Positions 7,903-31,656 of a stretch of DNA of 64,000 nucleotides are shown here, piece by piece (position 1 is the first letter of the stretch; each line of letters begins with the position of its first letter). Under the pieces are notes generated by a model that saw only the letters and a program-made list of their open reading frames with translations, was not told the DNA's origin and searched no databases. The stretch lies in the NCBI RefSeq assembly GCF_041886205.1, contig NZ_CP169029.1. The stretch is one strand, 5' to 3'. The position numbers and the translations under genes were made by a program. The DNA is from Escherichia coli. GTDB lineage: Bacteria > Pseudomonadota > Gammaproteobacteria > Enterobacterales > Enterobacteriaceae.

Positions 7903-8064
7903 TTAATATGGTCTGATACTGACGTGGTTCCTGTCATACTTACGGTCATGGGCGGTTATCGCCCATACTGTTCGTGCCAGCTTGTTTGCCATGGCGACGA
8001 TTGCCACACTGGCTGGACGACGTTTTTTCAGTTCGGTTATCCACGGGCCAGGCTCTTTAGCTAC
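7903..8064 (-). pseudogene. IS110-family transposase, C-terminal part, separated from its 5' part by an IS66-family insertion
   Basis: Minus-strand translation continues the interrupted tnp frame across the target duplication (...KEPGPWITELKKRRPASVAISAMANKL...), a typical IS110-family C-terminal tail. Confidence 0.55.
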
Positions 8065-8094
8065 GTAAGCGACTCGTCAGAACCGTATTGATAT

Positions 8095-9666
8095 TTACTG
8101 AGAGCTCAGATCAACTTTCCAGGGCAACAGATCGCGTACCCGGTTTGCCGGCCAGTCCTGGATATGTTCAATGACGTAACGCAGCCACTTTTCTGGCTCC
8201 ACATTGTTCAGACGGCATGTGCCGATCAGCGAGTACAACACCGCCGCATGTTCACCACCGCTGTCGGAACCCGCGAACATCCAGTTTTTCCGGCCTACGG
8301 CCACTCCCCGTAAGGCGTTCTCTGCGATGTTGTTGTCGATTTCCACCCAGCCATTACTGCAGTACACGTTCAGTGCATCCCACTGTTTCAGCAGGTATGC
8401 GAACGCTTTTGCCGTATCTGAGTGACGCGACAGTGTTTTCATCTGTTGCTGTATCCAGTCATACAGTGACTGCATCAGTGGCGCGGCTCTGGCTTTTCTT
8501 GCCGCCAGACGCTGTTCTGCTGAACAGCCCCGGACCTCTGCCTCGATGGCATACAGTTCACCGATACGCTGCAGGGCTTCCGTGGTGATGTAGGTGGACG
8601 CTCTTGCATGCACATCGTGGATTTTTCTCCGGGCATGAGCCATACACGCGGCTTCCGTTATTCTGCCGGATTCGTATAACGCCCGGTAACCACCGTAAGC
8701 ATCGGCCTGAAGCACACCGCTGTAACCGGCCAGGTGATTTTGTGGATGGATACCTTTCCGGTCCGGACTGTACGCGAACCAGACCGCCGGGGGCATCTGT
8801 GAACCGGCGTTACGGTCATCACGGACGTAGACCCACAGCCGGGCTGTCCGGGTTTTACCGCTGCCCGGCTCCTGGACCGGGACGGGGATATCATCAGCAT
8901 GGACTTTACCGGGCATCAGCACATACTGGCGCAGGACGTCATACAGCGGCTCCAGCAGTTCAGCAACAGCACCTGTCCAGCGCCCCAGTGTGGCACGGCT
9001 CAGCTCCACTCCCTGACGACGGTATATTTCTGACTGGCGGTATAACGGCAGATGGTCTGCATATTTCCCGGTGACAACATGGGCCAGAAGCCCCGCTCCG
9101 GCATAACTGCGTGCAATGGGTTTTGAAGGTACTGGTGCCTGCACGATATGGTCGCACCGGCAACAGGCCTGTTTCGGACGTTGTGTTTCGATAACCTTAA
9201 AGGCGCTGCTGATAAGCTCCAGTTGCTCTGACACATCACATCCCAGAGAACTGAGTTCACCACCACAGGCAGGACAGCATTCCTCTTCCGGCCGGATAAC
9301 CCGGGTTTCACGGGGAAGTGAGGCCGGTAACGGTTTACGGGCTGAAGACTGGCGCAGGGCGGATGGCAGTACCGGGTCATATTGCTCACCCAGCGTTTCC
9401 GCCATTTCTTCCTGAAGTGCGCTGATTCGCTCCTGTGCTTCCTGTATCTGCCGTTCGGTTTTTGCACGAAGTTTTTCTGAGCTTTTACCGAACTGCATAC
9501 GTTGCAGTTTCGCAACCAGCGCCTTCAGCCGGTTGATTTCGGAAGCATAAGCCGCCACCCGCTGTGAGAGCAGGCGGTTGTATTCAGCCATCTGGCGGAT
9601 GGTGTCCTGTTGCGTCTGCAACAGTGCCCGCAGGCGGGCGTTCTCATGAGCAAGTGAGGTGTCCAT
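8095..9666 (-). CDS. IS66-family transposase TnpC
   Basis: 523 aa, N-terminal coiled-coil/leucine-zipper region, CxxC zinc-finger pairs, typical IS66 TnpC length. Confidence 0.85.
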
Positions 9667-9685
9667 ATCCTCACTTTACAACGGG

Positions 9686-10033
9686 TTATATGCGGATTCC
9701 AGCGCGTTCCGTTCGTTTCGGGTGCTTCCAGTTGATACCTTCAAGAAGCATGGATAACTGAGCCGGAGTAAGGTGCACCTTGCCGTCACGGGTGACTGGC
9801 CAGACGAAGCGGCCCCGCTCCAGGCGTTTGGTGAAGAGGCACAGTCCGTCACTGTCAGCCCACAACACTTTTATCTGGTCACCCCGGCGTCCGCGGAAGA
9901 TGAACAGGTGTCCGGAGAACGGGTCATCCTTCAGGACGTTCTGAACTTTTGATGCCAGGCCGTTAAAGCCATTTCGCATATCGGTGATACCTGCAACCAG
10001 CCAGATACGCGAACCTGCAGGGAGAGATATCAT
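9686..10033 (-). CDS. IS66-family TnpB (orfB)
   Basis: 115 aa; WLVAGITDMRNGFNGLASKVQ motif characteristic of IS66 orfB. Confidence 0.85.
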   Translation of the reverse strand: MISLPAGSRIWLVAGITDMRNGFNGLASKVQNVLKDDPFSGHLFIFRGRRGDQIKVLWADSDGLCLFTKRLERGRFVWPVTRDGKVHLTPAQLSMLLEGINWKHPKRTERAGIRI

Positions 10034-10710
10034 CAGTGGCTGCTCCCTTTTATTTCGCGGATAAGTGTCTGTAATAACGCCGGCGTCAGTTTACCTTTAA
10101 GCCTGAGAGTTCCGGCCGGCAGAACCAGCTCACAACACAGACTGTCGGACGGTGTATTTATCTGCTCTGGTTCCTGTGCGGGGGCCGGGATTTTATTATC
10201 CGGCTCCGGCGTTAACGTCACGGGAAGCAGTGCCGGCATATTTTTTCCGGAAGGCAGCAGGCCACCTTTCCGGTATTGATGGCGCCAGTTGAAGAGCAGG
10301 TTATCGTTGATTCCGTTTTCCCGGGCGATCTGCGCCACACAGGCTCCGGGCTGCAGTGACTGCTCCACTAAGGCGATTTTAAACTCATAAGGGAAGTTGG
10401 GCCGCCGGGGACGTTTTTTTACCACGGGGGCTTCGGATATAACGGTGCTTTCAGGACGTACGACTGGTACCGTGGAAAATTGTCCGTAAAGGCAGGCATC
10501 AAGTTCCTGCTCCGACATGCCTGCGGGCAAAGGCCACGAAAGGCCAGCTCTCCGAAAGCGCACGAACATACTACAAACTGTTGATTTTGGTACACCCAGG
10601 CGACGCCCGGCCACAACCCGGGGTAAATGTTCTTCAAAGTGAAGACGTAAAGCTTCAGTGATCCAGGTCCGGTGTTTCATACGATAGTGTCCATTAAAAA
10701 TGATGGACAT
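10033..10710 (-). CDS. IS66-family orfA (HTH accessory protein, extended form)
   Basis: 225 aa; C-terminal IS66 orfA-like region (FKIALVEQSLQPGACVAQIARENGINDNLLFNWRHQY); start/stop overlap with orfB. Confidence 0.7.
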   Translation of the reverse strand: MSIIFNGHYRMKHRTWITEALRLHFEEHLPRVVAGRRLGVPKSTVCSMFVRFRRAGLSWPLPAGMSEQELDACLYGQFSTVPVVRPESTVISEAPVVKKRPRRPNFPYEFKIALVEQSLQPGACVAQIARENGINDNLLFNWRHQYRKGGLLPSGKNMPALLPVTLTPEPDNKIPAPAQEPEQINTPSDSLCCELVLPAGTLRLKGKLTPALLQTLIREIKGSSH

Positions 10711-10763
10711 TATTTTTGTAGAGCCGGAGGAAACAGACCAGACGGTTTAAATGAGCCGGTTAC

Positions 10764-11629
10764 TTAGCTACTAATGCCACCGCTCTTGCACCGTGGATAA
10801 ATAATGTCCTGAGATAAGTGTCACCACGTTTGCTTATCCCCAGCAGACGTACTTTCCCTCCGGAGCCAGTTTGTTTTGGAACCAGACCAACATATGCGGC
10901 GAACTCTCGCCCCGATTTAAACGCTGATGCTTCCCCCATGGTGGCCACCGCTGCCGTCGCAATAAGTGGTCCAACGCCAGGAATATCCAGCAACCGCTTA
11001 CAGGTTTCATTCTGCCTCGCCACGCTGGTAAGCTGTTTTTCAATATCCTCTATCAGTGAGTCCAGCTCATTCAGTCGGTTGTACTGGTTTTCCAGAACCA
11101 TAATGAGATACGGTGGCAGTCTCTCTTTCATCCGTTCCAGTGCTTCGGGGAACTCCCGCTCCATCGCTGCCCGGCCTTTGTGGATGGTTTCACCAAACTC
11201 CAGTAACGTCCCGTGCAGGGCATTAATTTGTGCGGTCCGGAACTTCACCAGTTGCATGCGGGTACGGTGCAGAACCAGTACCGACTGCTGTTCTTCTGTT
11301 TTTACGGCGATTTCTTTACCCGGCTGCTGAACCGCCATCCAGATAGCCCGGGCATCCATCACATCATTCTTATTGCCCATGACGAATGCCTTAACGAAGC
11401 GGGCCTGCAACAACCGGACTTTATGACCAAGTTTTGTCAGTTCCCGTGCCCAGTGCTGAGAACCTCCACAGGCCTCCATACCAATCAGGCATGGCTCACG
11501 GTTGCCGAAGAACATCAGAAAATCCTGTCTACGCAACTGTTTATCAACCACTTCACCTGTGTGCTCATTGATGAAGTGAATCTGAATGACATGTTTTGCG
11601 ATATCAACGCCAACCGGTGTATATTTCAT
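10764..11629 (-). pseudogene. IS110-family transposase, N-terminal 288 codons, truncated by the IS66-family insertion
   Basis: N-terminus MKYTPVGVDIAKHV (DEDD/RuvC-like) and C-terminal Tnp domain (DIPGVGPLIATAAV...YVGLVPKQTGSGGK...ISKRGDTYLR); its stop codon is supplied by the terminal bases of the IS66-family element. Confidence 0.7.
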
Positions 11630-11771: not shown

Positions 11772-11942
11772 TTACATTTTCACCATTTTGCCACTGCGGC
11801 CCCGGAAGACGAAGATATGCCCGGAGAACGGGTCATCTTTCAGCGTGTTCTGCACCTTCGAAGCCAGGCCGTTGAAGCCACAACGCATATCTGTGATGCC
11901 AGCGATGATCCAGATTCTGGTACCGGTCGGCAGCGTTATCAT
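11772..11942 (-). pseudogene. IS66-family orfB fragment (first ~50 codons) of a second, truncated IS66-family copy
   Basis: Translation MITLPTGTRIWIIAGITDMRCGFNGLASKVQNTLKDDPFSGHIFVFRGRSG then diverges; homologous to the intact orfB at 17905..18252. Confidence 0.6.
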
Positions 11943-12613
11943 CGGATACCCCCTTTCATTTCGCGAATGAGCACCCTAAGAAGCTCCGGAGTAAGGGGGG
12001 CAAACAGTTTTACCACACCTGATTTAAGATGCAGCTCACACTGTGGTGAGTCTACGGTAGTGTCATTCTGGCTTTCATCAGACTTGTTTCGCCAGAAAGG
12101 ATTTGTCACCGGTTTGACAGGGTCAGGAGTCTCAGTGATTGCTACCGGAACGGCCTGACATTCTTGGAGATCCTCATCATACAGTAAGCCCTCTTCATAC
12201 AGTCTTTTCCAGTTAAACAACAGATTGTCATTAATATTGTGCTCTCTGGCGATCCGTGCAACGACTGTACCAGGCTGTAATGCCTGTTTTACCAGCCTGA
12301 TTTTAAATTCACGACTGTAGGAGGTTCGTCGTTCTTTTCGCCATGTGCTTTCGCTGATTTGAGGCTCGGTTAATACCTTCTTTCTGTTGGCATAAAGTAT
12401 GGCATCAAGTTGGGCGACTGAAAGTGATTCAGGTAATGGCCAGGTAATACCGGAGGCATTAAATCGTTGAAAGAGATTATGAATAGTGGAATGACTGAGA
12501 CCTAACTGCAGGGCGATAGCCCGGACAGATAATTGCTCGTCGAATCTTAGACGTAATGCGTCTGGCAAATAAGAGCGAAAGCCGGTGATATCTTTTGTTG
12601 TCTGAGAATTCAT
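11939..12613 (-). CDS. IS66-family orfA (copy 2, extended form)
   Basis: Homologous to the orfA at 10033..10710 (IRLVKQALQPGTVVARIAREHNINDNLLFNWKRLY); probable start MNSQTT at 12613. Confidence 0.6.
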   Translation of the reverse strand: MNSQTTKDITGFRSYLPDALRLRFDEQLSVRAIALQLGLSHSTIHNLFQRFNASGITWPLPESLSVAQLDAILYANRKKVLTEPQISESTWRKERRTSYSREFKIRLVKQALQPGTVVARIAREHNINDNLLFNWKRLYEEGLLYDEDLQECQAVPVAITETPDPVKPVTNPFWRNKSDESQNDTTVDSPQCELHLKSGVVKLFAPLTPELLRVLIREMKGGIR

Positions 12614-12945
12614 CGTTCGTGTCCATCTATATAGATGGACGCGATTGTTGCCAGACAGGACAACCATCACAAAACGTCACAGACGGAGCCTTACATCTCA
12701 GCTGTAGCACACGCAGGATCAATTCCGGATTATCTGCCAGTACCGCCTTTCGTGCATTCATCTTAAATGTCCTTTTACTGCGAAAATGGACATTAGTATC
12801 GGAAACAGGAAAGGGAGGCGAAAGACGGTTTAAATGATGCGCTTACTGTTGTCTGGGAATTCATCGTTTGTGTCCATCAATATAGTTGGGCACGATTGTT
12901 GCCAGACAGGACAATTTTCACAAGACGTCGCAGATGGGGCGCTTA
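12596..12945. repeat. Imperfect ~90-bp direct repeat of an IS66-family terminus / orfA 5' region (12596-12700 and 12853-12945) containing the 20-bp perfect palindrome GTCCATCTATATAGATGGAC
   Basis: Aligned by eye; both copies carry GAATTCATCG...GTCCAT...GATTGTTGCCAGACAGGACAA; a CGCTTAC-type terminus follows at 12843-12850 and 12937-12943. Confidence 0.6.
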
Positions 12946-13267
12946 CCAATAACTCGGCAGGGAGTTATCTGTGCGAGGATATTTGTGTTATGCTGTAATA
13001 TAATAATTCAATGTGTTCAGGAACAGTAATATGCTACAGTTTCTACTTTCTTGTATTTAATAAATTGTTCCGTATCGCTAAAAGCAGGTCTTTCAGAAGT
13101 CAAAAGGATTCTGTGGTCCCAGTATTTTTAGTTATCTTATTTTTATATCTAATTTGTAATACTTATAGCATTTTCATTCTTCCTAATGGAAGGCTGTAAT
13201 AATCTTTGAGCTTAGGAACATCAAAATTATGCATCTCATTAATTTTGTCAGTCACACGACCTCTGGT

Positions 13268-14609: not shown

Positions 14610-14956
14610 TGTTATTTCTTTGTCAGGAGACTCTGAAAATATGGACATATATAACCTCTTTTATTATGAAATATTTTCAATAATAATCCGTTAGTAATCC
14701 TATCATAGGGTAATGCCTCATCATGTTAAAATGATCACATTTATAATCATGTCAAAAAGAACAACAGAAAAAATGATTTAAAATCAATTAAATATAATTT
14801 CAACATATTGTTGTTATTAAAACATTGGTGGTAAATGTAAAGCGAGAACAGTTTGTAACAGTGACTCCTTGCAGACTAAGTTAGAGTCTCCTGATCTTAC
14901 CCAGCAATAGTGGACACGCGGCTAAGTGAGTAAACTCTCAGTCAGAGGTGACTCAC

Positions 14957-15256
14957 ATGACAAAAACAGTATCAACCAGTAAAAAACCCCGTAAACAGCA
15001 TTCGCCTGAATTTCGCAGTGAAGCCCTGAAGCTTGCTGAACGCATCGGTGTTACTGCCGCAGCCCGTGAACTCAGCCTGTATGAATCACAGCTCTACAAC
15101 TGGCGCAGTAAACAGCAAAATCAGCAGACGTCTTCTGAACGTGAACTGGAGATGTCTACCGAGATTGCACGTCTCAAACGCCAGCTGGCAGAACGGGATG
15201 AAGAGCTGGCTATCCTCCAAAAGGCCGCGACATACTTCGCGAAGCGCCTGAAATGA
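14957..15256 (+). CDS. insE: IS3 OrfA (InsE)
   Basis: Translation [32 protein letters not shown]... matches my recollection of IS3 InsE. Confidence 0.85.
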
Positions 15257-16119
15257 AGTATGTCTTTATTGAAAAACATCAGGCTGAGTTCAGCATCAAA
15301 GCAATGTGCCGCGTGCTCCGGGTGGCCCGCAGCGGCTGGTATACGTGGTGTCAGCGGCGGACAAGGATAAGCACGCGTCAGCAGTTCCGCCAACACTGCG
15401 ACAGCGTTGTCCTCGCGGCTTTTACCCGGTCAAAACAGCGTTACGGTGCCCCACGCCTGACGGATGAACTGCGTGCTCAGGGTTACCCCTTTAACGTAAA
15501 AACCGTGGCGGCAAGCCTGCGCCGTCAGGGACTGAGGGCAAAGGCCTCCCGGAAGTTCAGCCCGGTCAGCTACCGCGCACACGGCCTGCCTGTGTCAGAA
15601 AATCTGTTGGAGCAGGATTTTTACGCCAGTGGCCCGAACCAGAAGTGGGCAGGAGACATCACGTACTCACGTACAGATGAAGGCTGGCTGTATCTGGCAG
15701 TGGTCATTGACCTGTGGTCACGTGCCGTTATTGGCTGGTCAATGTCGCCACGCATGACGGCGCAACTGGCCTGCGATGCCCTGCAGATGGCGCTGTGGCG
15801 GCGTAAGAGGCCCCGGAACGTTATCGTTCACACGGACCGTGGAGGCCAGTACTGTTCAGCAGATTATCAGGCGCAACTGAAGCGGCATAATCTACGTGGA
15901 AGTATGAGCGCAAAAGGTTGCTGCTACGATAATGCCTGCGTGGAAAGCTTCTTTCATTCGCTGAAAGTGGAATGTATCCATGGAGAACACTTTATCAGCC
16001 GGGAAATAATGCGGGCAACGGTGTTTAATTATATCGAATGTGATTACAATCGGTGGCGGCGGCACAGTTGGTGTGGCGGCCTCAGTCCGGAACAATTTGA
16101 AAACAAGAACCTCGCTTAG
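15253..16119 (+). CDS. insF: IS3 OrfB (InsF, DDE transposase/integrase core)
   Basis: 288 aa; rve-type catalytic core; overlaps orfA as expected for -1 frameshift expression. Confidence 0.9.
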
Positions 16120-16248
16120 GCCTGTGTCCATATTACGTGGGTAGGATCAATAAGCATATCCAGAGGTGGTGTACAAGCCAGAGTAAAACGTGAGTTTTAT
16201 TTGGTAAAATCGTAAGCGCCCTTTGTAGAGCGTAGTGTAAGCAGGGGT

Positions 16249-17885
16249 TTACAGAACGAGGTTCCAGTGCAACAACTCTTCCACCCGGTTTGACGGCCAT
16301 TCACTGATACAGCTGATGACCTCACGCAACCAGCTTTCCGGATCCACTCCTTTCAGCCAGCATGTCGCCAGCAGGCTGTACAGGATCGCTGCGCTCTGAC
16401 CTCCCGTGTCTGAGCCGAAGAATAGCCAGTTGCGTCGCCCTAGGGCGACACAACGCAGTGTGTTTTCTGCGATATTATTGTCCAGCTCCACACGCCCGTC
16501 CTCACAACAGAGCGACAGCGATTCACGGTGGTTCAGCATATAGCTGAACGCTTTCCCCAGCTCTGCATGCACCGACAACGTCTCCATCTGTTCTGTCAGC
16601 CACGCGAACAACGCCTTCATCTGCGGGACGCTTTTCTCCTGCCGTTCTGCCAGCCGTTTCTCTGCCGGTGACCCCGGATTGTCGCTTCCACCACATACAG
16701 CCCGGCTATATGCTTCAGCGCCTCCGTTGTCATCGCTGCCGGCCGGCGAACATGCTCATCATGGATCTTTCTCCTTGCATGCGCCATGCAGGCGGCTTCC
16801 CTGATCCGCCCTGACTCATAAAGCGCATCGTAACCGGCAAACGCATCTGCCTGCAGGATACCTTTCCACTCCGCCAGATGCCCCTGCGGGTGACAGCCCC
16901 GACGATCTGCACTGTAAGCGAACCACGCCGCTGGCGGAGCCGCTGAACCGCGGTTCCGGTCATCGAGCACATACACCCACAGCCGGCCCGTCCGGGTTTT
17001 ACCGCTCCCCGGCTCCAGCACTTTCACCGGGGTGTCGTCCGTGTGCTATTTGCTGCTCTCTCTCCATCACGTAGCGGTTCAGCGCATCGTGCAGGGGACT
17101 GAGTCGTTCTGCGGTCATCGCCACCCACCGGACCAGCGTGTTTCGGCTCAGTTCCACACCCTGGTGGCTGAAGATGACGGACTGACGATGCAGCGGGGTA
17201 TGGTCACAGTATTTACTCACCAGGATGCGGGCCAGCAGGTCCGCACCGGCCACACTGCGGGTCAGCGGTTTCGGGGGAGTGGTGCCTGGACTATCACATC
17301 GCAGCGGCTGCAGGCCAGCTTCGGGCGCACCGTTTCGATGACCTTAAAGGAGCTGCGGATTATCTCCAGTTGCTCTGAGACGGTTTCACTCATAACCTTC
17401 AGGTCGCCGCCGCATTTCGGGCAGACAGTCTCTGTCGGGGGGATGCGCCGGGTTTCACGTGACAGGTCTGCCGGCAGTTTCTGACGACGGGAGCGGCGTG
17501 CAGGCCGGTCCTGTGGGGCGACCGCCACCGGGGGCTCTGCCTGCTCAACCGTACCGACAGCGGGCTCATCGTCCTGCAGACAGCGTTTTGCCGCTGCAAG
17601 ACGGTTTTCCAGCTCAGCCAGCCGCTTCTCTGCCTGGCGGATTTTATTTTCCAGTTTATTGCGGCTTTTCTCCGAACTCTGCCCGAACAGCATCCGCCGC
17701 AGCTTATCAAGCTGTGCCTTCAGCCGTTCGATTTCCTGTTCGTAGTCGGCAACCTGTCCGGCGTACTGGCGCAGCCGGGCCTGCTGCTTTTTCATGGTAA
17801 CATTTAGCTGTTCCACAGCAACCTGCTGCTGACGCAACAGGGCTTTCAGCTGGTCGATATTATCAGGAAGCGGGATATTTTTCAT
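16249..17885 (-). pseudogene. IS66-family tnpC pseudogene (multiple frameshifts)
   Basis: Four consecutive minus-strand ORF pieces (17262..17885, 16999..17253, 16617..17027, 16249..16620) together resemble one TnpC. Confidence 0.7.
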
Positions 17886-17904
17886 CCTGCCCAGGTAAAG
17901 GGAT

Positions 17905-18252
17905 TCAGATCCGCAGACTATTACTTTTCGACCTTCCCGGTTGCATCCAGACTATACCCTCCAGCAGCATGGCAAGCTGTGCCGGGGTCAGATACACCTT
18001 TCCCTCCCGGGCGACCGGCCAGATGAACGTTCCCCGTTCAAGTCTTTTCATATAGATGCAGAGCCCTCCGCTGTCTGCCCACAGGAGTTTTACCAGCCTG
18101 CCCCTGCGTCCCCGGAAGATGAAGAGATGGCCGGAGATCGGGTCATCCTTCAGGGTGTTCTGGACCTTTGCGGCCAGACCGTTGAAGCCGTTTCTCATGT
18201 CGGTGATGCCGGCCACGAGCCAGATAAGGCAGCCAGCCGGAAGCGTAATCAT
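17905..18252 (-). CDS. IS66-family TnpB (orfB)
   Basis: 115 aa, close homologue of the orfB at 9686..10033. Confidence 0.8.
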   Translation of the reverse strand: MITLPAGCLIWLVAGITDMRNGFNGLAAKVQNTLKDDPISGHLFIFRGRRGRLVKLLWADSGGLCIYMKRLERGTFIWPVAREGKVYLTPAQLAMLLEGIVWMQPGRSKSNSLRI

Positions 18253-18659
18253 ACTGTGCTCCTGCCGGCGAGTTCGCGGACGATCCGGAGCTGTTTCTCC
18301 GGGTCAGGATTGTCGAGTGTGAGGGTGCCGTGGCGAAGCGTCAGCGAGCAGGTTGACCCCGTTCCCTGACCAGACAGAGCCGGAGACTGCCGGGTGGTGG
18401 AGTCAGGTACAATTTCGACCGGAAGTGCCGCAGGAGGGGATACAGATGGAACGGGAGCTGGCAGCCGGCGGAATACCCGGCCTTCTTTACGCCACAGACG
18501 GATCCATTTAAAAAGGACGTTATCGTTGACCCCGTGCGTACGGGCAATATCCGCAACATTGGCGTCCGGTCGGGTAGCCAGTTCGACCAGCCTGAGTTTG
18601 AATTCGCTGGAATAAACGCGGCGGGGTTCGGTCCGCCAGGCCCGGGTTTCAGATTCCAT
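18249..18659 (-). CDS. IS66-family orfA
   Basis: 136 aa; FKLRLVELATRPDANVADIARTHGVNDNVLFKWIR motif. Confidence 0.75.
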   Translation of the reverse strand: MESETRAWRTEPRRVYSSEFKLRLVELATRPDANVADIARTHGVNDNVLFKWIRLWRKEGRVFRRLPAPVPSVSPPAALPVEIVPDSTTRQSPALSGQGTGSTCSLTLRHGTLTLDNPDPEKQLRIVRELAGRSTV

Positions 18660-18796
18660 AACTTAGATGTCCGTCTGTTTCAGATGGGCGTCTAAGTTAG
18701 CGTTTTCACTCGACTGCCTGAAGACGTCTCTGACGGGTCGCTTACGTAAAATCAACCACGGGAAGCTCAACGGTGAAGTACTTTACCAGTTGATCA

Positions 18797-19090
<294 letters not shown>

Positions 19091-22053: not shown

Positions 22054-22875
22054 TTATAAGGAAATGGCAGAATACTCTGTGTTTATCCATGAGTGTTCCT
22101 TTTCCCAGGTGAATATCCATTTACGTACTGGTCCGGCCATCACGTTAAGGTAATAACTGTCATACCCGGCCATCGTCGCCACCGGGTGGTACCCTTTCGG
22201 CACCATGACCACGTCACGGTTATAGACCGCCATACATTCATCAAGTGTGCGGTCATCGGTATACACCCGCTGCATGCAGAACCCCTGTTCCGGGTTGAGG
22301 CGATGGTAATAGGTCTCCTCCAGATAGCTCTCCTGAGGCGGGTTATTCGTATCGTGTTTATGGCTCGGGTACGAACTGGTACAGCCTTCGTTGGTCCAGA
22401 CCTCGACGACCAGCAGGCTGTCAGCGGGCTTGTCTTCCGGCAAAATATTATGCACATAACGCTGGTTGTGGCCGTTACCGCGCGCTTCGCCATCGATATC
22501 CTGAGGTGCAATCAACCGCGTCGGGTATGTCCCTTTTCCCGGAGCGGTACAGACTGCCAGCTCCAGTTTCGTCAGCGCCTTCACCTGCACTGCCTCCTGC
22601 GGGGTGACGTAAACTGCCCAAGGTTTGATGCGCTCGAACGGGCTCATCCGCTCCCCGATATCAGTAAACTGTGCAGAAGGAGTGCTGATGAAAGCGCGCC
22701 CGGCCACCAGCACCAGACAGCGCTCTTCACTGACAGCGGGCAGCGTCAGTTGCTGCCCTTCCTCAAGTTCATAGGCCTCAAAGCCAACATATCCCCATCC
22801 GGCGCTTTCCGGCGTGACAGACTGAGTCCGCCCCTCAGCGTTCGGCTGTTGCCAGCGTGATAACAAACGTGACAT
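22054..22875 (-). CDS. iolB: 5-deoxy-glucuronate isomerase IolB
   Basis: 273 aa, KduI/IolB cupin-like; located in the iol operon. Confidence 0.8.
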   Translation of the reverse strand: MSRLLSRWQQPNAEGRTQSVTPESAGWGYVGFEAYELEEGQQLTLPAVSEERCLVLVAGRAFISTPSAQFTDIGERMSPFERIKPWAVYVTPQEAVQVKALTKLELAVCTAPGKGTYPTRLIAPQDIDGEARGNGHNQRYVHNILPEDKPADSLLVVEVWTNEGCTSSYPSHKHDTNNPPQESYLEETYYHRLNPEQGFCMQRVYTDDRTLDECMAVYNRDVVMVPKGYHPVATMAGYDSYYLNVMAGPVRKWIFTWEKEHSWINTEYSAISL

Positions 22876-22884
22876 GTCACCTCC

Positions 22885-23811
22885 TCAGATAAGCCCGGCG
22901 TCGCGCGCCAGGCGGCTCAGATTGTTATATCCCAGACGGGCGTAGGTCAGCGGATGGGCGATCGCCGGGTCCTGTTCAGCCTCCACCACCAGCCAACCGT
23001 GATAATCCTGCGTTTTCAGCAGTTGCATAATCGGCGGATAATCCACGCAGCCGTCACCCGGCACGGTAAACACGCCGCTCAGCACCGCGTCGAGGAAGCT
23101 GGTTTTACGGTTTTTGACGTCCGCCAGCACGTCGGCGCGCACATCTTTGCAGTGAACATGATTGATGCGCGATGCCCATCGCTGTGCCACCGCCAACGGA
23201 TCGGCCCCGGCAAAGGTCAGGTGGCCGGTATCCAGCAGTAAACCAACCTCCTCACCCGTGTGGAGCATCAGGTTGTCCACGTCTTGAGCGGACTCAATCA
23301 CCGTGCCCATATGATGGTGGTAAGCAATCTGTACCCCCTGTTGCTGCGTATAGCGGGCGAACACGGTGAGCTTCTCACCATACTCTTTCCAGCATTCCTG
23401 CGGGAAACGTGGGCGCAGGTGAACCGGCGTCTGCTGCTCACCGTGAATGCAGCCACTCACTTCCGCAAAAACCAGTACTTTTGCACCCAGCTCTCGCAGC
23501 AGCGTCAGATGCGACTGCACAGCAGCAATCTCGTCCTCTACACTGCGTTCCAACAGGCGGCCGGAATACCAGCCGGAGACCAACTGCAGGTCGTGGCGCT
23601 GCAAAATGGGGCCGAGCAGGCGCGCTTCTCGCGGGAATTTATTGCCCAGTTCGAAGCCGGCAAAACCGGCCTCTTTCCCTTCACTCAGGCAGGTCTCCAG
23701 AGATGTCTCCGCGCCCAGTGAAGGCAGATCATCGTTCGTCCACGTCAGCGGGTTGATGCCCAGTTGTACACTCATTGTCGTCTCCATTATGCGTGTCCGC
23801 GCTCGCGCCAC
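22885..23811 (-). CDS. iolE: Inosose dehydratase IolE (likely start MSVQLG at 23775)
   Basis: Xylose-isomerase-like TIM barrel; sequence GINPLTWTNDD typical of IolE. Confidence 0.8.
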   Translation of the reverse strand: MARARTRIMETTMSVQLGINPLTWTNDDLPSLGAETSLETCLSEGKEAGFAGFELGNKFPREARLLGPILQRHDLQLVSGWYSGRLLERSVEDEIAAVQSHLTLLRELGAKVLVFAEVSGCIHGEQQTPVHLRPRFPQECWKEYGEKLTVFARYTQQQGVQIAYHHHMGTVIESAQDVDNLMLHTGEEVGLLLDTGHLTFAGADPLAVAQRWASRINHVHCKDVRADVLADVKNRKTSFLDAVLSGVFTVPGDGCVDYPPIMQLLKTQDYHGWLVVEAEQDPAIAHPLTYARLGYNNLSRLARDAGLI

Positions 23812-25691
23812 CAGGCGATAAGCTGCAGGTAGTTGTCCCGGATGCGCGCCACCAACTGCGCATCGTCAATATCGTATTTCAGCCATGCGCGGGAGGCATC
23901 GCCAAACAGCGTGCGCCCCACGGCGAAGCCTTTCACCAGCGCCTGCCCCGCGGCAGCTTTGAAGTCGGCACGCAACTGTTCCGCCGGAGCATCCAGACCG
24001 AGGATCACCACGCCGCGGCAGTGCGGGTCCCGGCGCGCGATAATCTCGCTCAGTGCCGTCCAGCCTTCGGCGGAGAGCGGCGGCAGTTTCCACCAGTCGG
24101 GGTAAATGCCAAGGTTGTAGAAGCGGGAAATGGCACGCAGATAAAGTTCGTCACTGCGCGGCATAGTGGCGGGTAATATCACCTCCAGCAGCAGTTCATG
24201 TCCGGACTGACAGCAGGCGTGGTACACCTCGGCGATTTTCTGCTCCTGCTCCAGACGCAAGCCGTGGGCATCTTCCGGATGGAAAAAGACCAGGCACTTC
24301 ACCACATGCTCCTGCGGCCAACTGATAAGCTGGGTACCAATGTTACCGTGCTCCATCTCCAGCGGACGCGAGCCTGGCAGTTCAATGGGACGACCAATCC
24401 ACCACCCTTCGCCGGTAATGGCGTTCAGCGCATCCTGACCAAAGGTGCCATCGCACAGCAGGCCGGCTTTCCCCTCCAGCCCGGCAGAGCTTGCCGCCTC
24501 TCGGCTGGCCTGCAGGATCAGCTGTTTCAGCGCCGGAATACGCTTAAGCGACGCGCCGCACTGCAGCGCCATATCTTCCAGTTGACTGCGGTGATCGAAC
24601 GCCATCACGCACAGCTCCGGCCATTCGCGGCGGCGGGTGGTCACCCGGTGCAGATGGTTAAGACGCGGGTCAATGTCCGGGCGCGGAACGAGCGCGGCGC
24701 GGGAGAGGTAATCATCCAGCTCAATTTTGCTCGGCATCGCCGGTGCACAGCCGTGGCGCGAGACCACCAGCGCCCCACAGGCGTTGGCGTAGCGGCACGC
24801 CTGTTCCCAGCCCTCGTCGTTCAGGTAACCGCGCAGCAGGCCAGACATAAACGCATCTCCCGCGCCAAGGACGTTAAGCACCTCCACACGCACGCCGGTC
24901 ACCGTCAGGCCGTCATCCAGCCGAGGTGGAATGGCATCGGTATACACCGAACAGCCCAGCGCGCCGCGCTTGCAAACCAGTGTCGCCTTGCTGACGTGGC
25001 GCACCTGCGCCAGCGCCTGCAACGTATCGGTGCTGCCCCCCGCAATGTGAAACTCCTCTTCGGTGCCGACAACGACGTCGAAAAGGTGTAGCACCTCCTG
25101 AAGTTCACGGGTAACCTGTTCGGCAACGATAAAACGCGTTTCGCCGTCTCCTAGAGAGGTTAGTCCCCACAGCACTGGACGGTAGTCGATGTCCAGCACC
25201 GTGCGCACGCCGTGACGGCGGGCGTAATTCAGCGCCGTCAGCACCGCCTCGCGGGTCTGCGGGTGAGAAAGGTGAGTCCCGGTGATGGCAATACACCGTG
25301 CGGAGGCAATGTAGCTTTCGTCCACATCGCTGGCAGTAATCGCCATATCCGCGCAGTTATCGCGATAAAAAATCAGAGGAAAGGTGTCCCGGTCTTTAAT
25401 GCCGAGTAGCACCAGCGCCGTGAGGCGTTCTTTATCGGTGATCAGATGGCTGGTATCGCAGCCCACCTGGTTTAACTCTTCCCGCAGGAAGCGCCCCATA
25501 TGTTCATCGCCAACGCGCGCCAGCATTGACGAGCGTAAGCCCTGACGCGCGGTACCGTACGCCACGTTGCCGGACGAGCCGCCGAGATATTTGGCGAAGC
25601 TCGACACATCCTCCAGGCGGGCACCAATCTGCTGGCTGTAGAGGTCTACCGCCACGCGGCCCATGCATATCACATCAAACTGCTTTTCCAC
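23787..25691 (-). CDS. iolC: 5-dehydro-2-deoxygluconokinase IolC with C-terminal DUF2090/aldolase-like extension
   Basis: 634 aa; N-terminal PfkB-type sugar kinase (GAGDAF motif) plus ~300-aa C-terminal domain. Confidence 0.75.
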   Translation of the reverse strand: MEKQFDVICMGRVAVDLYSQQIGARLEDVSSFAKYLGGSSGNVAYGTARQGLRSSMLARVGDEHMGRFLREELNQVGCDTSHLITDKERLTALVLLGIKDRDTFPLIFYRDNCADMAITASDVDESYIASARCIAITGTHLSHPQTREAVLTALNYARRHGVRTVLDIDYRPVLWGLTSLGDGETRFIVAEQVTRELQEVLHLFDVVVGTEEEFHIAGGSTDTLQALAQVRHVSKATLVCKRGALGCSVYTDAIPPRLDDGLTVTGVRVEVLNVLGAGDAFMSGLLRGYLNDEGWEQACRYANACGALVVSRHGCAPAMPSKIELDDYLSRAALVPRPDIDPRLNHLHRVTTRRREWPELCVMAFDHRSQLEDMALQCGASLKRIPALKQLILQASREAASSAGLEGKAGLLCDGTFGQDALNAITGEGWWIGRPIELPGSRPLEMEHGNIGTQLISWPQEHVVKCLVFFHPEDAHGLRLEQEQKIAEVYHACCQSGHELLLEVILPATMPRSDELYLRAISRFYNLGIYPDWWKLPPLSAEGWTALSEIIARRDPHCRGVVILGLDAPAEQLRADFKAAAGQALVKGFAVGRTLFGDASRAWLKYDIDDAQLVARIRDNYLQLIAWWRERGHA

Positions 25692-25703
25692 GTTGAACCC
25701 TCT

Positions 25704-26837
25704 TCAGACAATGTCATTCACGTTCAGCCAGAGGCCCTGCTGGTGTGAGAGTGCGATGGCATCCAGCACACGCGAGACCTTCCAGCCCTCTTCGAAGTCC
25801 GGCCACATCGGTGCGTCGGTGGCGATGCCGTCTACCAGATCACGCACTTCCACCGTTTTTTGATCGTTAAAGCCGATACCATGACCTGCGCCCATGCAAA
25901 ACGCGCCGTAATCCGGGTGTGCCGGACCGACCAACAGTGTCCGGAACCCCTGACGGTTCACCGGATCATCATGCAGATAGAGCTTTATCTCTGCCATCCG
26001 CTCTTGGGTAAAACTGATCGCTCCTTTGGTACCAGTAATGACGTATGACAGCCCCATCTTGCGGCCGCAGGCGACACGGGAAGTTTCAATGACGCCCTGC
26101 GCCCCGCCCGCAAAGCGCACCATCGCGTGGGCCTGATCTTCATTTTCCACGGTGACCATTTCCGACGATCCGGCCTTTGCCGGACGTGCCGGTACCACAA
26201 TTTTCAGATCGCCACAAACCTGCTCAATCTCTCCCACAAGATACTGGGCCATATTGACGATATGTGCCGCCAGGTCACCCAGAGCCCCCAGTCCGGCGGT
26301 CTCTTTAAAACAGTGCCAGTGAATAGGGGAAAGCGGGTCGGCCATATAGTCTTCGTTGTGGGTTCCGTAGAAGTGGATCACCTCACCAATTTCGCCGCGC
26401 GCAATAATCTCTTTCGCCAACTGTGCCGTCGGGTTTTTCATGTAATTGAAACCCACCAGCGTTTTCACCCCTGCCCGCTTCGCAGCGTCGACCATCTCAC
26501 GCGCGTCGTGGGCATTCAGTGCCAGCGGCTTTTCCGAATAGACGTGCTTGCCGTGGCGGATCGCCTCCAGCGCCATCTCTTTGTGAAGATGGTTAGGGGA
26601 GCAAATATCCACCACATCAATGGCCGGGTCGACCACGAGCACCCGCCAGTCTCCGGTTGAGCGATTGAAGCCAAACGCCTGCGCGCGTTCTGCCGCCAGC
26701 GCCGGATTCACCTCAGCCACCATCTCGCGCACCAGTTTGCCGCGCAGATTGAACACCGTCGGTGCCTGGGCATAGGCAATGGCATGCGCCTTGCCAATAT
26801 ACCCGGTGCCAATCAATCCAATACGAACCTCTTTCAT
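25704..26837 (-). CDS. Gfo/Idh/MocA-family oxidoreductase (second inositol dehydrogenase-like enzyme)
   Basis: Rossmann motif IGLIGTGYIGKAH; ~377 aa from MKEVRIG. Confidence 0.75.
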   Translation of the reverse strand: MKEVRIGLIGTGYIGKAHAIAYAQAPTVFNLRGKLVREMVAEVNPALAAERAQAFGFNRSTGDWRVLVVDPAIDVVDICSPNHLHKEMALEAIRHGKHVYSEKPLALNAHDAREMVDAAKRAGVKTLVGFNYMKNPTAQLAKEIIARGEIGEVIHFYGTHNEDYMADPLSPIHWHCFKETAGLGALGDLAAHIVNMAQYLVGEIEQVCGDLKIVVPARPAKAGSSEMVTVENEDQAHAMVRFAGGAQGVIETSRVACGRKMGLSYVITGTKGAISFTQERMAEIKLYLHDDPVNRQGFRTLLVGPAHPDYGAFCMGAGHGIGFNDQKTVEVRDLVDGIATDAPMWPDFEEGWKVSRVLDAIALSHQQGLWLNVNDIV

Positions 26838-26845
26838 CGTGATCC

Positions 26846-27874
26846 TCACAGTGCGCCGCGACGGCTCTTGGCATAGGTGTCGAATGCCACCGCCAGAACG
26901 ATAATTAATCCGGTGATAATTTGCTGGTAGTAGGCCGAGACGTTCATCAGTACCAGGCCATTAATCAGAATGCCCATGATGATGGAGCCGATGATAGTGC
27001 CGCCGATGCGCCCATATCCCCCCATCAACGACGTGCCGCCAATAACCACCGAGGCAATAACACGCAGCTCAAAGGAGATCCCGGCAACCGCCTCAGCGCT
27101 CCCCAGACGAGCGCTCAGGATGAAGCCCGCCAGCCCCGCCAGACAGCCAATCAGCACATAGACGCTAACCAGCACACGCTTCACGTTTACCCCAGCCAGA
27201 CGTGCCGCCTCCGGGTTGCCACCGATGGCATAGACGAAGCGCCCCCAACGGGTTTTATGCAGTGCCAGATAACCACCAATGGCAACGATGGCGAAGATCC
27301 AGATCGGAATGGAGATGCCGAGCAATTCCCCTCGTCCCCACCAGCGATAACCCTGATCGAAGCCGGCAATCGGCGCACCGTCGTTAATCACGAGCGTCAG
27401 ACCACGCCAGATGGTCATCCCGCCAAGGGTGACGATGAACGGTGGTAGGCGCAGGCGGGTGACGCCCAGACCGTGCAGGAAGCCAATCGCTGTACCCATG
27501 GTCAGACAAATCCCCAGCCCAATCAGCCAGCTCATACCGCCCCAAGCGTTCGGATCGACTGTGGTGAAATTGTCGCCTTTGATCACGTACGCCGCTGTCA
27601 TGGCGCACACTGCCAGAATAGAGCCCACGGAGAGGTCGATCCCAGCGGTCAGAATGACGAAGGTCATCCCCACGGCCATGATCCCGTAGATGGAGACTTC
27701 GGTCAGGATGTTGAAAATATTGCGTTCAGAGAAAAAATTACTGTTCTGCGACTGAAAGAAGATCAGCAGCAGGATCATGAAAATCAGTACCCCGAAGCGC
27801 TCGAAGAAGGCAATGGGATCGATGCGTCCGGCGCGTTTTACCGGGACCTGCGTTTTAGGAATCATCTGCGTCAT
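26846..27874 (-). CDS. Sugar ABC transporter permease (ribose/monosaccharide type)
   Basis: 342 aa, multiple hydrophobic segments, start overlaps upstream gene. Confidence 0.8.
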   Translation of the reverse strand: MTQMIPKTQVPVKRAGRIDPIAFFERFGVLIFMILLLIFFQSQNSNFFSERNIFNILTEVSIYGIMAVGMTFVILTAGIDLSVGSILAVCAMTAAYVIKGDNFTTVDPNAWGGMSWLIGLGICLTMGTAIGFLHGLGVTRLRLPPFIVTLGGMTIWRGLTLVINDGAPIAGFDQGYRWWGRGELLGISIPIWIFAIVAIGGYLALHKTRWGRFVYAIGGNPEAARLAGVNVKRVLVSVYVLIGCLAGLAGFILSARLGSAEAVAGISFELRVIASVVIGGTSLMGGYGRIGGTIIGSIIMGILINGLVLMNVSAYYQQIITGLIIVLAVAFDTYAKSRRGAL

Positions 27875-27885
27875 GAGAAACTCCG

Positions 27886-29433
27886 TTATGCCGCGTTCAG
27901 GGCGTTGTGGTTGATAGCCATCATCGTCATCAGCCGTTCTTCGTTAGCGTCGTCACCGTGGATCTCGCCAGTTAACCGGCCTTCACTAAGGGTGATGATC
28001 CGGTCAGACACCGCCATCACTTCAGGCAGATCGGAGGAGATCACGATCACCGCCACGCCCTTTTTCGCCATATCAAACAGCACCTGGTGCACTTCCGATT
28101 TGGTTCCAACGTCGATGCCACGTGTCGGCTCATCGACAATCAACACCCGTGGATTGAGCGCCATGCAGCGCGCGAGGATAACTTTCTGCTGGTTGCCGCC
28201 AGAGAGCTTACGCACCTCCTGCGTGCTGTTGACCATTTTGATCTGCAGCGCCTGGCGGTAGGACTCAATCAGGTCGTCCTCTTTGCGGGTATTCACAAAC
28301 CAGCGCCACTGCAACAGCGAGGAGAGGCAGGAGAGCGACAGGTTGTCGCGAATCGACAGACCCAGCACCGCCCCCTCTTTTTTGCGATCTTCCGGCACCA
28401 GCGCCAGCCCTTGCTCCAGCGCATAAAGTGGGTCACGCGGCTGGTACGGCACGCCGTCCAGCTCAAAGCTGCCGGTGGTAAAGGCGTCGGCGCCAAACAG
28501 GCAGCGCGCTACCTCAGTACGACCAGCCCCCACCAGCCCAGCGATACCCAGAACTTCCCCTGCATGGACGTGAAAACTGATGTCATGCAGGGCGATGCCG
28601 TGTGGATCCAGCGGCGGTTTTTCCCGGCTTAACCCCTTCACCGACAAACGGACAGGTTTGTCTTCATGGTGGGTTTCGCTGGCAGGGCGGCGGTTAAAGG
28701 CCACATCACGCCCTACCATCAGGCGGATCAACTGCTCTACGTTCGTCTCCGTCACTGCGCCGGTGCCGGTGAAACGGCCATCCTGGAAAACGGTGAAACG
28801 ATCGCAAAGCTGGAAAACTTCATGCAGACGGTGAGTAACGTAAATAATGCTCACGCCGCGGTTTTTAAGCTCCCGCACCACGCGGTGCAGGCTTTCCACC
28901 TCGCTGTCACTCAGGGCGGCGGAGGGTTCATCCATGATGATCAGCCTGGCATTGAGGGTCAGCGCCCGGGCAATCTCCACCATCTGCTGCTGGGCCACGC
29001 TCAGACGGGCGACTGGCGTGGTGGGTGCGACATTCAGTTGCAGATAATCGAGAATCACCTGCGCTTCCTGATTGACCGCTTTTTCGTCGACGATCAGGTT
29101 ACGTTTACGCGGTTCGCGTCCGAGAAACATGTTTTCCGCAACGGTCATATTGGGCAGCAGGTTGAATTCCTGATAGATGGTGATAATGCCCTTGTTCTGC
29201 CGTTCTACCGGGGAGTCGTCCACCGGCAGCGTTTCGCCATTGAACCAGATCTCCCCGCGCGTTTGTGGCTGTGCGCCCGCGAGTGCCTTCAACAGCGTGG
29301 ATTTCCCAGCGCCGTTTTCGCCCAGCAAAGCGTGAATTTCACCCGTGCCGACGGTGAGCTGGGCGCTGCTCAGCGCCCATACGCCGGAAAAGCTTTTTGC
29401 CAGGTCGGTTACTTTCAGTAAGGGTTGCGACAT
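27886..29433 (-). CDS. Sugar ABC transporter ATP-binding protein (duplicated ABC domains)
   Basis: 515 aa; Walker A GENGAGKST, signature LSGGNQQK. Confidence 0.85.
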   Translation of the reverse strand: MSQPLLKVTDLAKSFSGVWALSSAQLTVGTGEIHALLGENGAGKSTLLKALAGAQPQTRGEIWFNGETLPVDDSPVERQNKGIITIYQEFNLLPNMTVAENMFLGREPRKRNLIVDEKAVNQEAQVILDYLQLNVAPTTPVARLSVAQQQMVEIARALTLNARLIIMDEPSAALSDSEVESLHRVVRELKNRGVSIIYVTHRLHEVFQLCDRFTVFQDGRFTGTGAVTETNVEQLIRLMVGRDVAFNRRPASETHHEDKPVRLSVKGLSREKPPLDPHGIALHDISFHVHAGEVLGIAGLVGAGRTEVARCLFGADAFTTGSFELDGVPYQPRDPLYALEQGLALVPEDRKKEGAVLGLSIRDNLSLSCLSSLLQWRWFVNTRKEDDLIESYRQALQIKMVNSTQEVRKLSGGNQQKVILARCMALNPRVLIVDEPTRGIDVGTKSEVHQVLFDMAKKGVAVIVISSDLPEVMAVSDRIITLSEGRLTGEIHGDDANEERLMTMMAINHNALNAA

Positions 29434-29484
29434 CAGCCTGCTCCTTATTTATGGGGAGCCGCCCGTACGGCGGCTCCAGACAAA

Positions 29485-30414
29485 TCAGTTACCGGCCTCA
29501 GCAATACGCTCAGCCTGTTGCAGGTTCTCTTTGGTGATCAGCGTCGGCGGATAGTCCGCACCGGTGATAGTTTTTTTCTCACGCACGTTAGCCACCAGTT
29601 GGCTCATCGCCGTGGTCACCGCAAAGCCGGGACGCTGATCCGCCGTAACCGCCAGCCAGCCGTCGCGCACGCGGGCCAGTGCTTCCGGTACCGCATCAAA
29701 ACCGGTGACCAGGATTTCACCCGGTTTCACACCCTGACTCTGCAGCGCTTCAATCGCCCCCAGCGCCATATCATCGTTGGCAGAGAGGATCACCTGAGGA
29801 CGTTTTGGCAGCGACGGCAAAACGCTTTCGACAATGCGCATCCCTTCCGAGCGCATCCAGTTGCCGGTCTGATCGGCGACGATCTTGTACATATCCCCGC
29901 CAGCCTTCAGGCTGTCGCGGATCCCTTTGGTGCGTTCAATGTTGGAGGAGGAACCCGGTTGACCGGTCAACAGAATGATCTCCGCGCCGTTGGGGAATTT
30001 GGTTTTGACGAAGTCGCCAATCGCCTGGCCGCCCTTGTAGTTGTTGGCACCAAAGTGCGGCACTTTTTTCTGGCTGTCGACAGAGCGGTCAAGCGTAACG
30101 ACCGGCAGCTTCGTATCCTGAATTTCATCTACCGCACTGGAGACCGCGTTCACATCGTTCGGGGAGACAATAAAGCCCTGCGCACCACGGGTGATGGCGT
30201 TTTCCAGGTCAGCCACCTGCTTCGGTGAGCTGCCCTGACCGTCCAGTACCTGAAGTTTCACCCCCATCTCTTTTGCGGCTTTCACCGCCGTGCGCTGCAT
30301 GTGAACTTCAAACGGCATGGCCAGGTTTGGCGTACTGAAAACAATTTGCTCGTTTTCGGCTATGGCGGCCCCGGATGTCATGGCGATTAGGGCGGCTAAG
30401 ATCAGTTTTTTCAT
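29485..30414 (-). CDS. Periplasmic sugar-binding protein of the ABC importer (putative inositol-binding)
   Basis: Signal peptide MKKLILAALIAMTSGAAIA; ATG at 30412-30414; the longer upstream ORF extension is rejected. Confidence 0.8.
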   Translation of the reverse strand: MKKLILAALIAMTSGAAIAENEQIVFSTPNLAMPFEVHMQRTAVKAAKEMGVKLQVLDGQGSSPKQVADLENAITRGAQGFIVSPNDVNAVSSAVDEIQDTKLPVVTLDRSVDSQKKVPHFGANNYKGGQAIGDFVKTKFPNGAEIILLTGQPGSSSNIERTKGIRDSLKAGGDMYKIVADQTGNWMRSEGMRIVESVLPSLPKRPQVILSANDDMALGAIEALQSQGVKPGEILVTGFDAVPEALARVRDGWLAVTADQRPGFAVTTAMSQLVANVREKKTITGADYPPTLITKENLQQAERIAEAGN

Positions 30415-30445
30415 TATTATGTCTCTCTGTGTAGGGTTGTTGTGT

Positions 30446-31432
30446 TTAGAGGACGATCTCACGCTGGCAACGCAGTGATTCCAGCGCTTTATCCGCGAGG
30501 TACAGCGCACGTTCACCATCATCGCCGCTGCAATCAGGCACCGCTTCGCCGCGCAGAACCGCAACAAAGTGCTCCCATTCCGCTGCGTAAGCGGATTTGT
30601 AGCGTTGCAGGAAGAAGTGTTCCGGCAGCGCGCTGGTGCAACCCTGTTTGCCGTAGTGCTGCACCTGGTTTTCAAGGATATTGCCCGCGCACAGCAGCCC
30701 TTCGGAACCGTGTAGCTCCAGGCGCTGGTCGTAGCCGTATGAAGAGCGGCGACTGTTGACGATGGTCGCCATCGCGCCGGAGGCATATTTCAGAACGATA
30801 AATGCGGTGTCGATATCTCCCGCTTCGCCAATCGCCGGATCCACCAGATTGCTGCCCTGGGCATACACCGACACCGGCTCTTCACCCATGATGAAGCGTG
30901 CCATGTCAAAGTCGTGGATGGTCATATCACGGAACATGCCGCCGGAAACACGCACGTACACCGCAGGCGGTGGAGACGGATCGCGGGAGATGATCAGCAG
31001 TGATTCCGGTTTGCCGATACGCCCGGCCTGAGTGTCGGTTTTCACGCGACGGAACTGTGGGTCAAAGCGGCGGTTAAAACCGATAAACAGCGGTACGTCA
31101 TACTCTTTGACCACTTTCAGGCAGTCGCGTACGCGGGCAAGATCAAGGTGTACCGGTTTTTCACAGAAAATGGCTTTGCCGTAACGGGCGGCCATTTCAA
31201 TCAGATCCGCGTGGGTGTCGGTCGCGGAGGCGATCAATACGGCATGAACGTTCGGGTCGGTCATCGCCTCATCCAGGCTCTGCTGGCGCGCCTGATACTG
31301 TGTCGCGAGACGCGTGGCGAACTCCTGATTCGGGTCTACCACAGACCAGAGCGTGGTCGCACTATGGCTGGCGATGTTAGCTGCATGTACCTGGCCAATT
31401 CGGCCAGCGCCCAGTAAAGCAATGTTAAACAT
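30446..31432 (-). CDS. iolG: myo-Inositol 2-dehydrogenase IolG (Gfo/Idh/MocA family)
   Basis: 328 aa; N-terminal Rossmann motif ALLGAGRIGQVHA. Confidence 0.8.
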   Translation of the reverse strand: MFNIALLGAGRIGQVHAANIASHSATTLWSVVDPNQEFATRLATQYQARQQSLDEAMTDPNVHAVLIASATDTHADLIEMAARYGKAIFCEKPVHLDLARVRDCLKVVKEYDVPLFIGFNRRFDPQFRRVKTDTQAGRIGKPESLLIISRDPSPPPAVYVRVSGGMFRDMTIHDFDMARFIMGEEPVSVYAQGSNLVDPAIGEAGDIDTAFIVLKYASGAMATIVNSRRSSYGYDQRLELHGSEGLLCAGNILENQVQHYGKQGCTSALPEHFFLQRYKSAYAAEWEHFVAVLRGEAVPDCSGDDGERALYLADKALESLRCQREIVL

Positions 31433-31626
31433 AACGGCTCCCGGTGTTGATGAATGCGGTGAACTAACGACACTACAAATAAAACATTTATTTCATTTTT
31501 ATAAATAGTGAAAATTATATTTTGAGTGACAGTTAACACTTTTGAGATGTATTAGATAAATTTTGTTATCAATCTCACAACGCCGAGGAAGATATGTCCC
31601 TCCATTACAAGGGGGGGAGGGAATAA

Positions 31627-31656
31627 AAACTGTACCATCCCCTCTCCCGTTGGGAG
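31627..31656 (-). terminator. Perfect 14-bp-stem palindrome, probable terminator after iolD
   Basis: CCATCCCCTCTCCC-GTT-GGGAGAGGGGATGG; T-rich run follows on the minus strand. Confidence 0.5.

Follow-up and report, generated by a model that had tools for sequence, protein, structure and literature searches.

The IS66 family of insertion sequences (ISfinder) has as its prototypes IS66 of Agrobacterium Ti plasmids and IS679 of the E. coli plasmid pB171. Its members carry tnpA, tnpB and tnpC in this order, the first two overlapping in ATGA, and encode a TnpC with leucine-zipper, zinc-finger, DDE_Tnp_IS66 and C-terminal domains. The ends carry GTAAGCG and the element is flanked by a target duplication, for which PMC6778807 gives a length of 8 bp in IS66, after Machida et al. 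(1984). For the family as a whole, that article refers to Han et al. (2001) and Gourbeyre et al. (2010). The window analyzed here, a stretch of 64,000 nucleotides from the E. coli contig NZ_CP169029.1, harbors an element that shares this organization and differs from the described members in that its tnpC is a pseudogene.

A complete IS66-family element and its intact relative

The element consists of the following parts:

16212-18745, minus strand: complete IS66-family element, 2534 bp, with ends read from the sequence
18716-18745, minus strand: left terminal inverted repeat region, GTAAGCGACCCGTCAGAGACGTCTTCAGGC, its first 30 nt equal to those of the intact E. fergusonii copies
18249-18659, minus strand: tnpA, open, encoding a helix-turn-helix accessory protein of 136 aa (reading frame and profile matches)
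17905-18252, minus strand: tnpB, open, IS66 Orf2 type, 115 aa (reading frame and profile matches)
16249-17885, minus strand: tnpC pseudogene in four open reading frame pieces (reading frames, tblastn and profiles)
16212-16241, minus strand: right terminal inverted repeat region, ending CTACAAAGGGCGCTTAC, with 28 of 30 nt equal to the E. fergusonii copies
18746-18753: target-site duplication, tnpA-side copy, GTAAAATC on the plus and GATTTTAC on the minus strand, abutting the element end
16204-16211: target-site duplication, tnpC-side copy, GTAAAATC, abutting the element end

Read on the minus strand, the element starts with GTAAGCGACCCG and ends with GGGCGCTTAC. GTAAGCG points inward at both ends (GTAAGCG…CGCTTAC), and the repeat is imperfect past the first 7 nt. 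All three genes lie on one strand in the order tnpA-tnpB-tnpC; tnpA and tnpB overlap in ATGA at 18249-18252, and tnpC follows after a gap of 19 bp. TnpA matches PF01527 (E=8e-13) and NF047595 (78.3 bits against a cutoff of 74), and TnpB matches PF05717 (E=1e-35) as well as NF033819. The tnpC pieces tile PF13007, PF13005, PF03050 (profile positions 3-68, 77-204 and 209-283) and PF13817 in order. By its gene order, the domains of TnpA, TnpB and TnpC, the GTAAGCG ends and the 8-bp duplication, the stretch 16212-18745 belongs to the IS66 family. Its G+C content is 58.8%, compared with 49.9% for the window.

The same insertion sequence is present in Escherichia fergusonii chromosomes with 93.5-94.8% nucleotide identity over all 2534 bp (loci L019, L020 and L018). 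These loci were reached via the TnpA cluster, some proteins of which are assigned to Escherichia fergusonii by NCBI; the E. fergusonii TnpA is 95.6% identical to that of the window. Locus L019 (AP027926.1, 735459-743869) is 94.7% identical over the full length, has all three genes intact and is flanked by the duplication GATTTGTC; its uninterrupted TnpC scores 443 bits against NF033517. L020, which shares 99.9% identity with L019, lies at a different site with the duplication CGCGCCAG; it has a 31-bp deletion in tnpB, and L018 carries a stop codon in tnpC. The E. fergusonii copies resemble the window element in gene order, in the lengths of tnpA (136 aa) and tnpB (115 aa) and in both ends. They differ in occupying several loci with their own duplications, in the uninterrupted 537-aa TnpC of L019 and L020, and in the lack of 21 bp (7 codons, window positions 17798-17818) near the TnpC N-terminus, an in-frame indel for which all E. 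coli copies have the longer form. No such intact copy was found among 5426 complete E. coli genomes. A cognate intact transposase is provided only by E. fergusonii-type copies and not by the window.

The plasmid collection contained no full-length element, only a 42-bp right-end fragment and distant tnpB matches. This fragment (16212-16253) occurs with 97.6% identity on many plasmids of E. coli and E. albertii, where it is unannotated and probably represents solo ends that belong to related IS66 elements. Longer members of the TnpC-fragment cluster (P0122, P0128, P0135) were considered as copies of this insertion sequence and discarded, as they belong to a different IS66 element.

Inactivation of tnpC

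The transposase gene had been described in the earlier note as decayed into four frames by several frameshifts. The pieces in fact alternate between two frames, as their end coordinates modulo 3 are 2, 0, 2 and 0 and their tblastn frames 3, 2, 3 and 2. Two alternating frames across four pieces imply three frameshifts, so that this part of the description holds, and a nonsense codon that it had missed is present in addition. The lesions were located by alignment with the intact relative and with 13 E. coli copies, all taken from complete genomes:

17262-17885, minus strand: tnpC piece 1, 207 aa
17273-17277, minus strand: frameshift 1, -1 bp, a run of five C, compared with six bases in relatives (CCCCCC, CCTCCC or CCCTCC)
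16999-17253, minus strand: tnpC piece 2, 84 aa
17057-17064, minus strand: frameshift 2, +4 bp by microsatellite expansion, (GA)4 compared with (GA)2 in the intact relative
17046-17048, minus strand: nonsense codon in the ancestral frame, CAG>TAG, by C>T at 17048
16617-17027, minus strand: tnpC piece 3, 136 aa
16669/16670, minus strand: frameshift 3, loss of one A, GTCAACC>GTCACC
16249-16620, minus strand: tnpC piece 4, 123 aa

The earlier note had proposed to find the frameshifts by alignment with the intact TnpC of another IS66-family element in the window (copy 1). Segments of 46-70% identity were obtained in this way, which gave approximate positions; the exact ones came from the sister copies and the E. 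fergusonii copy. At each of the four lesion sites the latter has the ancestral sequence. Repair of all four lesions yields a conceptual TnpC of 544 aa, which matches PF03050 with 315 bits (profile positions 2-283 of 284) together with PF13005, PF13007 and PF13817, and to which the 537-aa TnpC of L019 is 92.6% identical. This E. fergusonii protein was not returned when the repaired TnpC was used in a word-indexed protein search, in which the best full-length match reached 69%; negatives of that search should not be taken as absence. Among strains the (GA)n tract at 17057-17064 has 2, 4 or 5 units and behaves like a small microsatellite.

An autonomous insertion sequence has an uninterrupted transposase frame, and here that frame is broken by three frameshifts and one nonsense codon. 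All three genes are reportedly required for transposition of IS679, so the window copy should be inert. The earlier statement that the copy is immobilised on its own agrees with a dead transposase gene, and we infer that it would be unable to transpose unaided.

The C-run and the (GA)n repeat, in which two of the three frameshifts are located, are prone to slippage, as would be expected if they were homopolymer and microsatellite miscalls in sequencing or assembly that conceal an intact tnpC. However, the same indels occur in ZYB62, ZYB39, C10, C11 and JML285, which come from different sequencing groups. The whole 2534-bp allele is present at 100% identity in ZYB62 and ZYB39, and the copies of C10, C11 and JML285 are 99.8% identical with the same indel states; the decayed allele was found in six complete genomes. 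The exact 207-aa and 84-aa frameshift products are encoded on 228 and 252 public contigs, respectively (NCBI, ENA, Logan). Moreover, the frame is also destroyed by the TAG codon, which is a substitution, and the lesions are nested across lineages. Thus the frameshifts are real and not sequencing errors, for which there is practically no probability left. The earlier note would have given up its claim if the frameshifts disappeared on resequencing, and they persist, as the identical allele is found in independent genomes.

A full-length TnpC could also be obtained from the interrupted gene by programmed recoding, through ribosomal frameshifting or transcriptional slippage. Programmed -1 frameshifting is used by IS1 and IS3, and the IS3 adjoining the element is annotated accordingly. 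For the present tnpC, however, three separate recoding events and readthrough of a stop codon would be demanded, and neither C5 nor (GA)4 is a canonical slippery heptamer. Intact TnpC proteins of the IS66 family are encoded by a single open reading frame. In sister copies and in the intact relative the reading frame continues through these sites, which identifies them as derived mutations rather than conserved signals. Recoding is accordingly given almost no credence, and tnpC is regarded as a pseudogene.

This feature is ordinary and already known. RefSeq/PGAP lists the locus as an IS66 family transposase, frameshifted, with tnpA and tnpB called (RG33_RS29710 in C11; FFF71_RS04200 in JML285). 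The annotation differs from the present analysis in that it gives neither the number and order of the lesions nor the target duplication or the link to E. fergusonii.

A single locus beside the iol island

The perfect 8-bp target duplication claimed in the earlier note was confirmed. GTAAAATC abuts both ends of the element. The 8-mer occurs four times in the window compared with 2.35 expected, so a bare occurrence carries little meaning; the chance of a match at two fixed positions is 4^-8 by our own arithmetic. When the flanks are joined, they align without gaps to an uninterrupted paralogous stretch in strain D8, which contains a single copy, GGTTTTAC, and sits within a group II intron ltrA pseudogene. 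The duplication is therefore genuine. An orthologous empty site was not found in E. coli, where only the paralog in the ltrA pseudogene spans the junction. The target DNA (about 16178-16211 and 18754-18820) is 84-91% identical to a stretch in group II intron ltrA (reverse transcriptase/maturase) genes and pseudogenes, counterparts of which lie on other E. coli chromosomes and on plasmids. By this resemblance, the element is inserted into what was already mobile-element debris.

Matches to the element were detected in 38 of the 5426 complete E. coli genomes, 29 of which contain the tnpA-tnpB half. The left junction with its copy of the duplication is identical in all 13 loci from complete genomes, the right junction is identical in the 11 of these that keep the right end, and both junctions are identical in 10 further contigs carrying the decayed allele. 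At every E. coli locus examined the element follows a MarR regulator, a hypothetical gene and an integrase-core pseudogene, in this order, beside the iol island. No second E. coli insertion site was found among the loci examined; two of the 29 genomes contain a second, unplaced match to tnpA, so that a further site may exist there. The iol cluster for myo-inositol catabolism is complete in the window (22054-36310). In addition to iolB, E, G and D it includes an ABC transporter and a regulator of the MurR/RpiR type. The relic accompanies it in all strains examined, and the outer neighbors of the island vary by strain.

In every E. coli copy examined tnpC is inactivated, and the lesions differ. 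Besides the window allele, the following states were observed:

L005, L012: tnpC without frameshift 1
L004, L011: tnpC without frameshift 1, with a different insertion, +C
L006: frame restored by (GA)5, with the TAG codon thereby exposed and flagged as 'internal stop' in the annotation
L007 type: 8-bp duplication near codon 59 and truncation by IS256
L008 type: tnpC chimeric with another IS66 element past element position 1834
L013 type: 968-bp deletion

The lesions at 17057-17064, 17048 and 16669/70 are common to a wider clade, and the deletion in the C-run is confined to the clade of the window. This distribution suggests that frameshift 1 (17273-17277) is the youngest lesion. Past position 1834 in L008 (NZ_CP080260.1), as well as in P0002, P0055 and P0067, the 3' half of tnpC falls to about 60% identity. 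Judged by this switch, these copies are chimeras and give evidence of recombination between IS66-family members.

The earlier note had left room for rescue in trans by copy 1, an element at a distance of 6 kb:

8065-10762, minus strand: ISCro1-like IS66-family element (copy 1), 2698 bp, apparently intact, with TnpA of 225 aa, TnpB of 115 aa and TnpC of 523 aa

Copy 1 is flanked by the 8-bp duplication GTAGCTAA, splits an ISEc11-like transposase gene of the IS110 family (flanks 7903-8064 and 10763-11629) and is assigned to the ISCro1 family by PGAP. It shares family, architecture and duplication length with the relic. However, the proteins are only 54.8% (TnpC), 73.9% (TnpB) and 36.4% (TnpA) identical, TnpA of copy 1 has an N-terminal extension, and one of its ends begins with GTAACCG. 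On these comparisons copy 1 is a different insertion sequence. An ISEc23 copy at 3.7-6.1 kb, suggested by the annotation of ZYB62, is absent from the window; the ZYB62 match covers only about 6.9-37.4 kb.

If the relic were a non-autonomous passenger still mobilised by copy 1, the three open genes and the own duplication of the latter would provide the source of the transposase. Both elements belong to one family, the ends of the relic hardly differ from those of intact relatives, and the right end of copy 1, GTAAGCGACTCGTCAGAACCGT, is alike in 19 of 22 positions, compared by eye, to the left end of the relic, GTAAGCGACCCGTCAGAGACGT. The other end of copy 1 (GTAACCG), however, is a poor match to the right end of the relic, and the low identity of TnpC and TnpA argues against exchange of transposases. 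We are not aware of any report in which one IS66-family member mobilised a different one. A non-autonomous element would be expected with the same allele at several sites, but one junction was found throughout the 13 and 10 loci, with the two unplaced tnpA matches mentioned above. All decayed-allele copies examined share the same junctions and the same duplication, including that of ZYB62, in which an ISCro1-like element is present, and thus give no sign of movement. Complementation by copy 1 is therefore without support, and mobilisation of the relic by this element in trans is considered very unlikely.

The reading we prefer, with a probability of roughly 0.93, is that of a fossil insertion sequence derived from one old insertion, passively inherited and decaying separately in each lineage. 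An IS66-family element would have transposed once into group II intron-like debris beside the E. coli iol island, and this single event would have generated the 8-bp duplication GTAAAATC. The copy would since have been inherited passively with the island. Free of selection, tnpC may have gathered slippage mutations and a stop codon in nested order, and other lineages would have lost it independently. Under this scenario tnpA and tnpB would still be open only as short targets, with neutral drift there too. Since the ends are almost unchanged, the element might in principle still be a substrate for a cognate transposase such as that of E. fergusonii; nothing within the window supplies one. The nested and alternative lesions are ready markers with which to trace how the E. 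coli iol island was inherited and spread horizontally. Beyond such housekeeping the locus is of little importance and represents textbook decay of an insertion sequence after fixation.

Accessory genes and neighboring elements

The accessory genes tnpA and tnpB had been considered intact and preserved. They are indeed open and keep their ATGA overlap, but no constraint is apparent. Among 14 E. coli copies, 16 nonsynonymous variants compare with 2 synonymous ones; one of the 16 is a stop codon in tnpA, present in two copies, and the annotations of C10 and C11 give a shortened tnpA. These counts fit neutrality, and an omega of 0.3 or less is rejected (p about 2e-4). Thus tnpA and tnpB are not kept by selection and drift neutrally. 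By our own arithmetic from the gene lengths, all four lesions would land in tnpC by target size alone with a chance of about 0.22. Open accessory genes beside a dead transposase therefore call for caution, as they do not imply selection.

In other systems, shortened transposases act as inhibitors of transposition; examples are the Tn5 inhibitor and InsA of IS1. The 207-aa N-terminal stub of TnpC retains PF13007 and PF13005, that is, the leucine zipper and the zinc finger but no catalytic domain, and together with tnpA and tnpB it might have been recruited to regulate or inhibit related IS66 elements of the island. In tnpC segment 1 the ratio of nonsynonymous to synonymous variants is 0.42. Constraint in the past might account for this value, but the clades diverge unevenly along the element, which makes exchange of sequence with functional relatives the likelier source. 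Co-option is opposed by the neutral pattern of tnpA and tnpB, which are knocked out in some strains, and by other lineages that truncate TnpC elsewhere, near codons 59 and 148; such differing truncation points speak against a conserved product. It is therefore judged highly improbable. An equally slight chance is given to the idea that tnpA, tnpB and the stub might be expressed and restrain the related intact ISCro1-like element at a distance of 6 kb, either as a brake acting in trans or as a sink that takes up host factors; if this were true, the relic would be a regulator and not junk. The neutral drift of a fossil element is preferred to both.

Other mobile elements surround the relic. A third IS66-family remnant at 11775-12946 comprises tnpA (11939-12613/12670) and a truncated tnpB (11775-11942). 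It contains GTAAGCG motifs at 12840-12846 and 12940-12946 on the minus strand and a 94-nt direct repeat (12596-12689/12847-12940, 86% identical), and the pair of motifs with the repeat suggests a duplicated left end. A full-length IS3 of 1258 bp (14893-16150) lies 53 bp from the duplication of the relic; it is flanked by the triplet tcc on one side and ata on the other and hence has no target duplication. The DNA beyond IS3 varies by strain (uhpC, an autotransporter or a VasL remnant), and the contig L026 lacks IS3. This variation points to rearrangement mediated by IS3.

A search across the whole window yielded no tRNA. Just past the open reading frame of a tyrosine integrase (45699-46901), a 182-bp unit is repeated 2.5 times with 98% identity (47062-47520), and each unit contains a terminator-like hairpin followed by a T-run. 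A match to the Rfam family Ysr251 (188 bits) and a 100-bp tandem array matching naRNA4 were also recorded (48811-49004 and 50071-50391). The array looks like a REP/BIME cluster, which is ordinary for E. coli.
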